From Escherichia coli (lineage in GTDB: Bacteria; Pseudomonadota; Gammaproteobacteria; Enterobacterales; Enterobacteriaceae): 64,000 nt of DNA. A program made the translations under genes and the position numbers. Each line of letters begins with the position of its first letter. Positions within the stretch are counted from its first letter, which is position 1. The notes under the pieces were generated by a model. The model was not told the DNA's origin. It saw only the letters and a list, made by a program, of their open reading frames with translations, and searched no databases. This document shows positions 1,268 through 2,157 of this stretch, one piece after another. Where the stretch lies: NCBI RefSeq assembly GCF_048403405.1, contig NZ_CP183129.1; one strand, given 5' to 3'.

Positions 1268-1789
1268 TTATTCATCGATGCATTTTATAGAATCATCAAT
1301 GGCTACAATAGTACTATTAACTCTCCAATTTATATTTTTATTATCATTGCAAATATTAACTGAATCTATATCAATGATTTTTTTATTTTTATCTTTTATT
1401 TTGTTTACAGTTTCAATGCAATCAGCGACAAGTTGGTGTGGATTTAGATTCTTCAGATATGGTCTTATGATCTTTCCCTTGCTTAATAAATAGCATGTAT
1501 AGGATTCGGAAAGTCCAGCATCTATTTTGTACATCATTATTCTAGATAAGGATGTGAGAAATGCCTTGTTATCATTAGCAGCCATATATGCCAGTCCGAG
1601 TTCAGCCTCTGCGGCTTTACATGAAAAATAGCTAAGTGAACACGCTTTTCGTCCCTCTTGGGTACTGGCTGATATTAGTGCCCATAATATTGCCTTGTCT
1701 GCCAAATCCAACTCTCTCTGAAATTGGTTTACAGTAACTGCATTCGCAGAAATAGAGAAGAAAAGCACAATTGTTAATAACCTTGTCAT
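1268..1789 (-). CDS. hypothetical secreted protein (predicted N-terminal signal peptide MTRLLTIVLFFSISANA); candidate orphan immunity protein of the Rhs locus
   Basis: 173-codon ORF in AT-rich DNA downstream of rhsA; hydrophobic N-terminus with AxA-type cleavage site; start lies 4 bp after the stop of the 91-codon ORF at 1794..2069; sits where K-12 has yibG but identity not verifiable here. Confidence 0.45.
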   Translation of the reverse strand: MTRLLTIVLFFSISANAVTVNQFQRELDLADKAILWALISASTQEGRKACSLSYFSCKAAEAELGLAYMAANDNKAFLTSLSRIMMYKIDAGLSESYTCYLLSKGKIIRPYLKNLNPHQLVADCIETVNKIKDKNKKIIDIDSVNICNDNKNINWRVNSTIVAIDDSIKCIDE

Positions 1790-2157
1790 ATTTCTAGTCC
1801 GTCACTGTTAATGTGCTATCTGGCTCTGAAAATATTAGCTCATTTAATTTTTGCATGTCATTAGATGAACCAGTTATACAACCCTCGGAACAGAATCGAG
1901 GTCCTAAAGATGGACCAAAAGCGTTTAAACAACTATGTGTTAAAAATCCATCACGATTATACGTTTCTGTATTTGCTGACGGTACTAAACGTATACCATT
2001 AGGTTTTCTATTGGTTGCTCCAGGACTGTTAAGCAAGCCTCGTCCGGTTTGCTTCATTGAGTTCTCCACTTTAGACTATTGGACTATCTTTCAACATGGC
2101 ATCGCCTTAGTATACCGCTGGTTTTCCGCTCATTGTTAATTTTCTCTTTCGTTCATT

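Follow-up and report, generated by a model that had tools for sequence, protein, structure and literature searches.

Between the main rhs gene and yibH, in the 64,000-nt stretch of Escherichia coli DNA analyzed here (the window), lie two closely spaced open reading frames (ORFs) that very probably constitute a distal orphan remnant of the rhsA locus, namely the displaced and truncated tip of an Rhs toxin of the Tlde1 type followed by an intact gene for a putative periplasmic immunity protein of the Imm57 family. The kind of module, the toxin family (Tlde1, or Tox-LD-peptidase) and the immunity family are all already described. An earlier note on this DNA had proposed an orphan toxin-tip/immunity module at this site, and this proposal is borne out by the identification of an Imm57 protein and of the 3' part of a Tlde1-type tip, the same tip being carried, 4 bp upstream of Imm57, by a 1389-aa Rhs in 2013C-4282.

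The ORFs of the first 9 kb of the window mark this region as the E. coli rhsA locus (Table 1). On the minus strand, the main Rhs gene is followed by a 136-aa ORF and then by the tip remnant and Imm57. We recovered both ORFs of the earlier note on this strand, with 91 codons from a GTG start (1794..2069) and 173 codons from an ATG start (1268..1789), and the gap between them indeed measures 4 bp, the stop codon TAG (1796-1794) being followed by AAAT (1793-1790) and then by the ATG at 1789. The AT-richness to which attention had been drawn is likewise evident, with a GC fraction of 0.34 in the Imm57 gene and 0.375 in the tip remnant versus 0.62 in the Rhs core and 0.51 in the whole window. A search of window positions 800-2700 against Rfam gave no RNA family at E <= 1. 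Over 1.8 kb, the locus shows 100% identity to numerous RefSeq chromosomes of E. coli, among them CFSAN061763, in which the PGAP annotation runs from an RHS element core protein through a hypothetical protein of 136 aa and an 'Imm57 family immunity protein' to yibH.

Table 1. Features at the rhsA locus of the window, with the basis for each assignment.
Feature	Position	Strand	Basis
yibH, partial	4..810	+	ORF list
Imm57-family immunity gene, intact, 173 aa	1268..1789 (stop included)	-	Pfam, PGAP, AF2, motif
Predicted Sec signal peptide of Imm57, codons 1-17 (MTRLLTIVLFFSISANA)	1739..1789	-	hydrophobicity and A-N-A motif
Native rhs-stop/immunity-start junction, 4 bp (TAG AAAT ATG)	1790..1793	-	same in 2013C-4282
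3' remnant of Tlde1/Tox-LD-peptidase Rhs tip, 79 codons and stop	1794..2033	-	tblastn, alignments, Pfam
12-codon 5' extension of the 91-codon ORF, unrelated to the tip	2034..2069	-	sequence and ACN002 alignment
Decayed rhs 5' end, right-hand margin of the incoming cassette	2034..2157	-	blastn and pairwise alignment
136-aa ORF, putative immunity gene of the main Rhs tip, part of the displacing cassette	2158..2568	-	ORF list
C-terminal tip now carried by the main Rhs, following DPLGL; displaced the Tlde1 tip	2626..3045	-	translation, Pfam
Main Rhs, 1376 aa	2626..6756	-	ORF list
yibF and selA	within the first 9 kb (rhsA locus)		ORF list

To judge from its sequence, the 173-aa ORF clearly encodes an Imm57-family immunity protein. 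It matches the Imm57 model (Pfam PF15596) from position 2 to 100 of 100 with a score of 150.2 (E = 2e-44), and PGAP names it 'Imm57 family immunity protein' (WP_000197506.1). An AF2 model derived from 13 sequences is all-alpha (pLDDT 86.3), and the family motif D90...S94-E95...C99 is present (DAGLSESYTC), with D90 and C99 being invariant. This mostly α-helical predicted fold and the conserved D, SE and C residues agree with the published description of the family (PMC3482391). Scans of the ORF against NCBIfam, PADLOC and PHROGs returned nothing meaningful, and a PDB sequence search with the protein gave chance-level matches only. A Foldseek comparison of the model with the PDB found no credible neighbor (best E = 0.22, TM 0.26), so that the structure offers no mechanism for the putative inhibition by Imm57. 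The N-terminus, MTRLLTIVLFFSISANA/VTV, combines a basic residue, a hydrophobic core (Kyte-Doolittle 9-residue mean of 1.4-2.8 across residues 1-10) and an A-x-A site, in keeping with the signal peptide that the earlier note had read there, and signal-peptide-like N-termini are also seen in Imm57 homologues at 24-52% identity. The predicted Sec signal peptide implies a probable location in the periplasm, with which the six cysteines of the protein, five of them conserved, are compatible.

The signal peptide is the one feature that would suit a housekeeping periplasmic protein unrelated to Rhs, a possibility that had been raised from the outset and that is refuted by the remaining evidence, such that we accord it next to no probability. 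Beyond the strong Imm57 match, roughly one in three E. coli genomes lacks the gene, and most others have it in frameshifted form. The exact 173-aa protein is found in 6,831 index blocks of an assembly collection, and in all 10 of the contexts listed it lies at the end of this same rhs locus. Moreover, distant organisms also have Imm57 adjoining Rhs/YD toxins that bear this tip: at three of the four distant metagenomic loci that were checked, it sits directly downstream of tips that are 50-58% identical, which belong to full-length Rhs proteins at two loci and to a CBM96/Big_7 protein at the third. Its position immediately downstream of a Tox-LD-peptidase gene is typical of the family; Tox-LD-peptidase is listed with Imm16/Imm57 and with RHS fusions (Zhang et al. 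2012, PMC3482391); Rhs-DUF2778 fusions were noted in the Tlde1 preprint, where the same link is cited (bioRxiv 10.1101/2020.02.18.954545).

The 91-codon ORF consists of 12 unrelated codons followed by the last 79 codons of an Rhs toxin tip, corresponding to residues ~67-145 of a 145-aa tip. In a tblastn search, residues 103-181 of the HS-02 tip aligned with window positions 2033..1797 at 97% identity. The last 79 residues of the 91-aa product are 96-99% identical to the tips of HS-02, VE-F5, PE164, 2013C-4282 and P0002, the last being a partial Rhs protein in which the core ends in ...DPLGL and is followed by a ~145-aa tip (96% identity over the 79 residues). At the DNA level, homology with HS-02, VE-F5 and K-12 runs from about window position 2033 through Imm57 and past its stop codon. 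As the Rhs-tip homology begins in the middle of the toxin domain, the earlier note was right in seeing no obvious core remnant in this ORF. The match to Tlde1_dom (PF10908) is weak and partial, covering positions 66-107 of the 120-position model only, rather than the whole domain. Thus, the profile searches that had been called for returned Imm57 for the 173-aa protein and a partial Tlde1_dom hit for the 91-aa protein (E = 1.3e-3), and the outcome that would have told against the proposal, that neither ORF resembles a toxin or immunity family, did not arise. Given the E-value of the Imm57 match and the 97% identity of the last 79 codons to real Rhs tips, the pair does not consist of chance ORFs.

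The complete form of the tip, as found in HS-02 (annotated 'tlde1 domain-containing protein'), matches PF10908 with E = 2.2e-7 over model positions 10-106 of 120. An exhaustive search with the complete tip recovered 169 relatives, many of which constitute the C-terminus of Rhs/YD proteins of 1378-1616 aa. An alignment of 31 tip sequences revealed 23 invariant or near-invariant positions, and H99, S115, G117 and C118 are invariant or nearly so across these 31 homologues. In a profile alignment of the tip family with Ldt_fm, H99 and C118 fall on the catalytic His and Cys of this enzyme, the latter within SHGC. The AF2 model of the complete tip has a pLDDT of 91 and a pTM of 0.87, and its best 25 PDB matches are all L,D-transpeptidase or L,D-carboxypeptidase folds. 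Tlde1a of Salmonella is a periplasmic L,D-carboxypeptidase/transpeptidase acting on peptidoglycan stems, which needs its catalytic His and Cys for activity and is blocked by an immunity protein bearing a signal peptide (bioRxiv 10.1101/2020.02.18.954545; PMC9638812). Tlde1a depletes tetrapeptides and increases tripeptides in the muropeptide profile. Homology predicts that the complete E. coli tip acts as Tlde1a does, after T6SS/Rhs delivery, and that Imm57 binds it in the periplasm. With the Tlde1a/Tldi1a pair of the Salmonella Typhimurium T6SS, the complete tip shares the PF10908 domain, the L,D-transpeptidase-like fold and the His/Cys catalytic motif, as well as the predicted action on periplasmic peptidoglycan and an immunity partner with a signal peptide. 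However, Tlde1a is a stand-alone effector of 173 aa, whereas the E. coli domain forms, or once formed, the C-terminal tip of an Rhs protein; the His-Cys spacing is 19 residues in the E. coli tip, as in canonical L,D-transpeptidases, but 10 in Tlde1a (H121/C131); and the immunity proteins belong to the all-alpha Imm57 family in one case and to DUF2195 (Tldi1a) in the other. The similarity between the E. coli tip and Tlde1a is too low for a PDB sequence match.

The DNA upstream of the remnant points to the way in which the tip was truncated. Over their whole length, the 130 bp from the 136-aa ORF to the junction align with the 5' end of an rhs gene, comprising about 17-24 nt of upstream sequence and codons 1 to ~40, and blastn matched them, at about 75% identity, to the first part of a gene annotated as 'RHS element core protein', which is present in ACN002 and some 50 further genomes. 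This relic has its ATG at 2133 and reads MSGKPAVY, stop, GDAMLKDSPIV, stop and so forth, with stops and a 9-nt deletion. Pairwise alignment places the junction, ...CAGT/CCTGGAGC, at about 2028-2024, inside the old tip. We also considered the remnant as a PAAR-Tlde1 fusion effector with a spacer starting in MSGKPA, and rejected this reading as the rhs-like relic is out of frame, carries many stops and shows no more than ~75% identity to real rhs starts. The tip that the main Rhs now carries, on the other side of the relic, contains the motif HEMGH and weakly matches Peptidase_M91 (PF14891, E = 1.5e-3). The 136-aa ORF has a signal- or lipoprotein-like N-terminus and no match in the precomputed Pfam data, NCBIfam, PADLOC or PHROGs; a PHROGs scan of two antisense ORFs likewise yielded nothing meaningful. 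Metallopeptidase-like tip, 136-aa ORF and rhs relic form a cassette that occurs in 180 of 5,426 complete E. coli genomes, always at the rhsA locus and always with the 136-aa ORF accompanying the main tip. That all 180 copies are at least 99% identical and occupy one locus indicates a single recent displacement event.

The relic also accounts for the beginning of the 91-codon ORF. What had been described as an unusual start is a GTG at 2069, chosen by the longest-ORF rule, and this much of the description holds; an ATG at 2057, with GGAG (2064-2067) 6 nt upstream, is available as well, and gives the 87-aa version that is used in some annotations (protein P0001; gene in L009). The GTG, the ATG and the GGAG all arose by accident, from the decayed rhs start being read in a different frame. 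It is improbable, in our estimate, that the 87/91-codon ORF is itself functional, be it as a minimal L,D-peptidase fragment or as a leader delivering ribosomes to the Imm57 start. The catalytic motif is kept, as H45-x15-S61-E-G-C64-I conforms to the pattern H-x(14-17)-[S/T]-x-G-C-h, the GGAG is suitably placed before the ATG, the ORF ends in the native coupled junction, and some annotations call it as a gene. Against these features stand the loss of four of the eight strands of the fold (2-6, 11-15, 27-31 and 61-65, the remnant starting at tip residue ~67) and of 12 of the 23 conserved positions, among them the GPIPxG segment and four conserved cysteines, which leaves the L,D-transpeptidase-type fold incomplete. 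The ORF further has neither a signal peptide nor an Rhs/PAAR delivery part, its first 12 codons derive from the out-of-frame rhs start, and PGAP does not annotate it. Apart from the partial Pfam match, NCBIfam, PADLOC and PHROGs scans of the ORF returned nothing meaningful, and a PDB sequence search with its product gave chance-level matches only. Given the loss of half of the strands, of these conserved residues and of the delivery domain, we regard the tip remnant as a relic and conclude that the product of the 91-codon ORF cannot be a working toxin, which agrees with the decayed tip that the earlier note had offered as one option. The ORF is best treated as a pseudogene fragment, not as a gene.

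Of the 5,426 complete E. coli genomes, 3,644 carry the module and about a third lack it. The predominant allele, which is ~92% identical and has the form found in K-12, occurs in about 3,367 genomes (~62% of E. coli); a 1-nt deletion in Imm57 codon 9 was found in every sampled copy (n = 8), and an internal stop in the tip region in six of these eight. An allele that is at least 95% identical occurs in about 315 genomes (~6%), with Imm57 intact in all six copies sampled. Comparison of window-type with K-12-type alleles gives a dN/dS of 0.30-0.35 in Imm57 and of 0.24 in the tip, indicating past purifying selection on both for most of the divergence of the alleles; within the intact class, the substitutions are too few to reveal ongoing selection. 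To find full-length Rhs proteins with this tip, we used a chimeric DNA query of core and tip, Rhs cores being dominant in protein clustering. In 2013C-4282 the order is yibF, a 1389-aa Rhs-Tlde1 gene with no stops, 4 bp, an intact Imm57 gene and yibH; the stop/start junction has the same sequence as in the window, and we presume that this arrangement is the simple, ancestral state of the locus. Full-length Rhs-Tlde1 is also found in PE164 (1392 aa), E105 and F2_81, and in PE164, the sole one of these three for which the locus was fetched, the neighboring Imm57 is frameshifted. Intermediate lengths of core are retained in HS-02 and FDAARGOS_497 (~37 codons, followed by the full tip) and in VE-F5 (~1 kb). 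An active toxin encoded by a second copy in the same genome was considered and rejected, as the second copy in HET6, at the rpmE-yiiX rhs locus, is a core remnant with a partial tip that is cut by ISAs1 and has no Imm57.

These distributions bear on the possibility that the whole module is inert debris, in which Imm57 is intact merely because the truncation is recent, is expressed at unprotective levels and confers no benefit. We hold this to be a serious, though less than even, possibility. The death of the K-12-form allele in about 62% of the complete genomes suggests little species-wide selection for Imm57 immunity, the near-identity of the 180 genomes with the window-type junction speaks for a recent event, and in PE164 it is the toxin gene that is intact and its immunity gene that is dead. 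Promoter-like matches are not enriched either, with 10 found versus 10.7 expected in shuffled sequence, although a promoter/terminator scan with no such excess is no guide to expression, and in Salmonella LT2 the expression of orphan immunity was apparently too low to protect ancestral cells (PMC3967940). Nevertheless, the 173-codon ORF stays open in DNA of 34% GC across several upstream contexts (window type, HS-02, VE-F5, LR890661 and 2013C-4282), and the native translational junction has been kept. Furthermore, no terminator-like site was found on the coding strand between the main rhs gene and Imm57, which renders read-through transcription plausible.

In its organization, the module closely resembles the orphan rhs-CT/rhsI modules of Enterobacteriaceae, for which 'C-terminal displacement' has been described (Jackson 2009; Poole 2011, PMC3150448; Koskiniemi 2014, PMC3967940). 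Like these, it is downstream of and co-oriented with the main rhs/rhsI pair, consists of an AT-rich tip followed by its immunity gene, has a tip that is fused to full-length rhs in other strains (2013C-4282 and PE164), and would have arisen by displacement upon arrival of a new tip and immunity gene. However, typical orphans keep some core sequence upstream of DPxGL, whereas the window module lacks core-coding sequence altogether, being cut inside the toxin domain, and its upstream neighbor is the relic of an rhs 5' end. The lack of core closes the route of re-arming by homologous recombination with the main rhs gene.

The K-12 region between yibG and yibH contains the same module in the same position, directly before yibH, at ~92% DNA identity. 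In K-12, a core remnant and the tip at its full length are preserved, but the tip has an internal stop and Imm57 a frameshift at codon 9; the window copy, in contrast, has an intact Imm57 and no more than the final 79 codons of the tip. The earlier note had pointed to the yibJ/yibG positions of K-12 for comparison, which proves to be off by one unit, as the equivalent is the next module toward yibH, a core-remnant pseudogene with a frameshifted Imm57. From its position, we take this equivalent to be the yibV/yibU region, which can accordingly be read as a frameshifted allele of the window module.

Taken as a displaced orphan, the module would have the following history. Originally, a full-length Rhs protein would have carried a ~145-aa L,D-peptidase tip of the Tlde1 type, attacking the periplasmic peptidoglycan of target cells, and the next gene, 4 bp downstream, would have encoded the periplasmic immunity protein Imm57. 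A foreign AT-rich cassette, in which a metallopeptidase-like tip was joined by its 136-aa partner ORF and by the decayed 5' end of an rhs gene, then presumably recombined into the locus, and its right junction would have landed inside the old tip, thereby deleting the first ~66 codons of the latter. Left over are a non-functional toxin fragment, open by chance as an 87/91-codon ORF, and the intact Imm57 gene, so that in the window only the immunity half of the module can work. Read-through from the main rhs operon may supply the transcript of Imm57, and ribosomes may reach its start through the native stop/start junction, perhaps in coupling with translation of the relic ORF; the protein would be exported by Sec. 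If expressed, it may bind and block Rhs-Tlde1 tips injected by other E. coli, providing immunity without a toxin; its most likely role is thus that of a putative stand-alone periplasmic immunity protein against Rhs-Tlde1 toxins from other E. coli. In this it resembles the orphan immunity genes and arrays of T6SS, as in Vibrio cholerae (PMC5361080) and those for Rhs NADases in Serratia (PMC10539506): here too, an immunity gene has outlasted its displaced effector and could shield its host from attackers other than kin, although for T6SS orphan immunities protection was shown experimentally, whereas for the window Imm57 we infer it.

A more specific scenario, to which we assign a low likelihood, is that the intact Imm57 of ~6% of genomes may be a maintained shield against the rare carriers of full-length Rhs-Tlde1, with the 87-codon relic ORF serving as its translation leader. 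Translation of Imm57 would then depend on termination and reinitiation at the kept 4-bp junction and, if this were true, a dead toxin fragment would have been co-opted as the leader for its former antidote. The pairing of Imm57 with this toxin had been foreseen in 2012 and the immunity gene is already named in RefSeq, so that the identification matters little beyond correct annotation. The strains described here nevertheless form a natural set for the study of orphan immunity, with toxin and immunity in 2013C-4282, toxin and a dead immunity gene in PE164, and immunity only in the window.

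The tip cassette now occupying the rhsA locus comprises the current main Rhs tip, a 136-aa partner ORF and a decayed relic of an rhs 5' end, which directly adjoins the downstream side of the 136-aa ORF on the minus strand. This arrangement implies that a second rhs gene, or a piece of one, would have stood right behind the immunity gene in the donor of the cassette. Of 5,426 complete E. coli genomes, exactly 180 carry the pair formed by the main tip and the 136-aa partner, and its copies are all at least 99% identical. No family match was recovered for the partner in Pfam precomputed data, NCBIfam, PADLOC or PHROGs.

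Features of the module, its surroundings and related loci
Feature	Location	Strand	Details
Hairpin	window 1214-1232	minus	short, ACTC-TCCAG-GAGT, then seven T's; ~35 nt past Imm57 stop
Antisense ORF, 71 aa	window 1278-1493	plus	over module
Antisense ORF, 108 aa	window 1813-2139	plus	over module
Decayed rhs 5'-end relic	window 2034-2157	minus	ATG at 2133; translation MSGKPAVY*GDAMLKDSPIV*
136-aa partner ORF	window 2158-2568	minus	N-terminus signal/lipoprotein-like (MKVCLYFISVFFSSCC)
Current main Rhs tip	window 2626-3045	minus	HEMGH motif; weak Peptidase_M91 match, E = 1.5e-3
E. coli PE164 Rhs-Tlde1 + Imm57	L024, NZ_CP114128.1, 1833-6537		Rhs 1392 aa, full-length, stop-free; Imm57 frameshifted
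E. coli HET6 second copy	L017, NZ_OZ001727.1, 8345-10651		sel1/YibG-like gene, core remnant, ~60% of Tlde1 tip
LR890661.1 module	L013, 7757-8522		Imm57 and tip remnant
JGI metagenome contig	L029, 188-2643		639-aa protein and Imm57

The immunity gene Imm57 of the common allele, the K-12 form of the module, was sampled at loci L002 and L019-L023 (K-12, O157:H7, O111:H8 and others). Alignment with window 1268-2033 shows the same 1-nt deletion in Imm57 codon 9 in every sampled copy, and a slippage-prone run of A residues near codon 135 shows variable +1/-1 changes among these copies. The codon-9 deletion also frameshifts the Imm57 gene lying 3' of the Rhs-Tlde1 gene in PE164, a strain that apparently encodes the toxin without immunity. 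This may perhaps be tolerated, because the target is putatively periplasmic and delivery is possibly inactive. In E105 and F2_81 the match to the query equals that of PE164, and a full-length 'RHS element core protein' lies beneath it.

The AlphaFold2 model of Imm57 (ma0f59aedc290, window 1271-1789) is confident and all-helical. A Foldseek search of this model against the PDB returned no credible structural neighbor (best E = 0.22), and the family appears to be one lacking a solved representative. Past the Imm57 gene, the hairpin is retained in the E. coli strains HS-02 and VE-F5 and in K-12; it was too weak for a call in the terminator scan. Neither of the two ORFs antisense to the module has a family match in PHROGs, and both most likely arise as by-products of the coding strand.

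In genomes that belong to the window's lineage, such as HET6, the rpmE-yiiX rhs locus carries a second copy, which is partial and K-12-like. The HET6 copy is cut off within the Tlde1 tip by an ISAs1 element, and Imm57 is absent from this locus. In LR890661.1 the Imm57 protein is identical to that of the window and adjoins a strongly diverged tip remnant (dS 0.185), a combination that points to a putative recombination breakpoint inside the module. The 639-aa protein of the JGI metagenome contig bears a Tlde1 tip with 58% identity, with Imm57 encoded downstream, and combines CBM96 with Big_7 repeats and only a short Rhs core end, the YD-repeat shell being absent. On this domain architecture, the Tlde1 tip also moves on carriers other than the Rhs shell.
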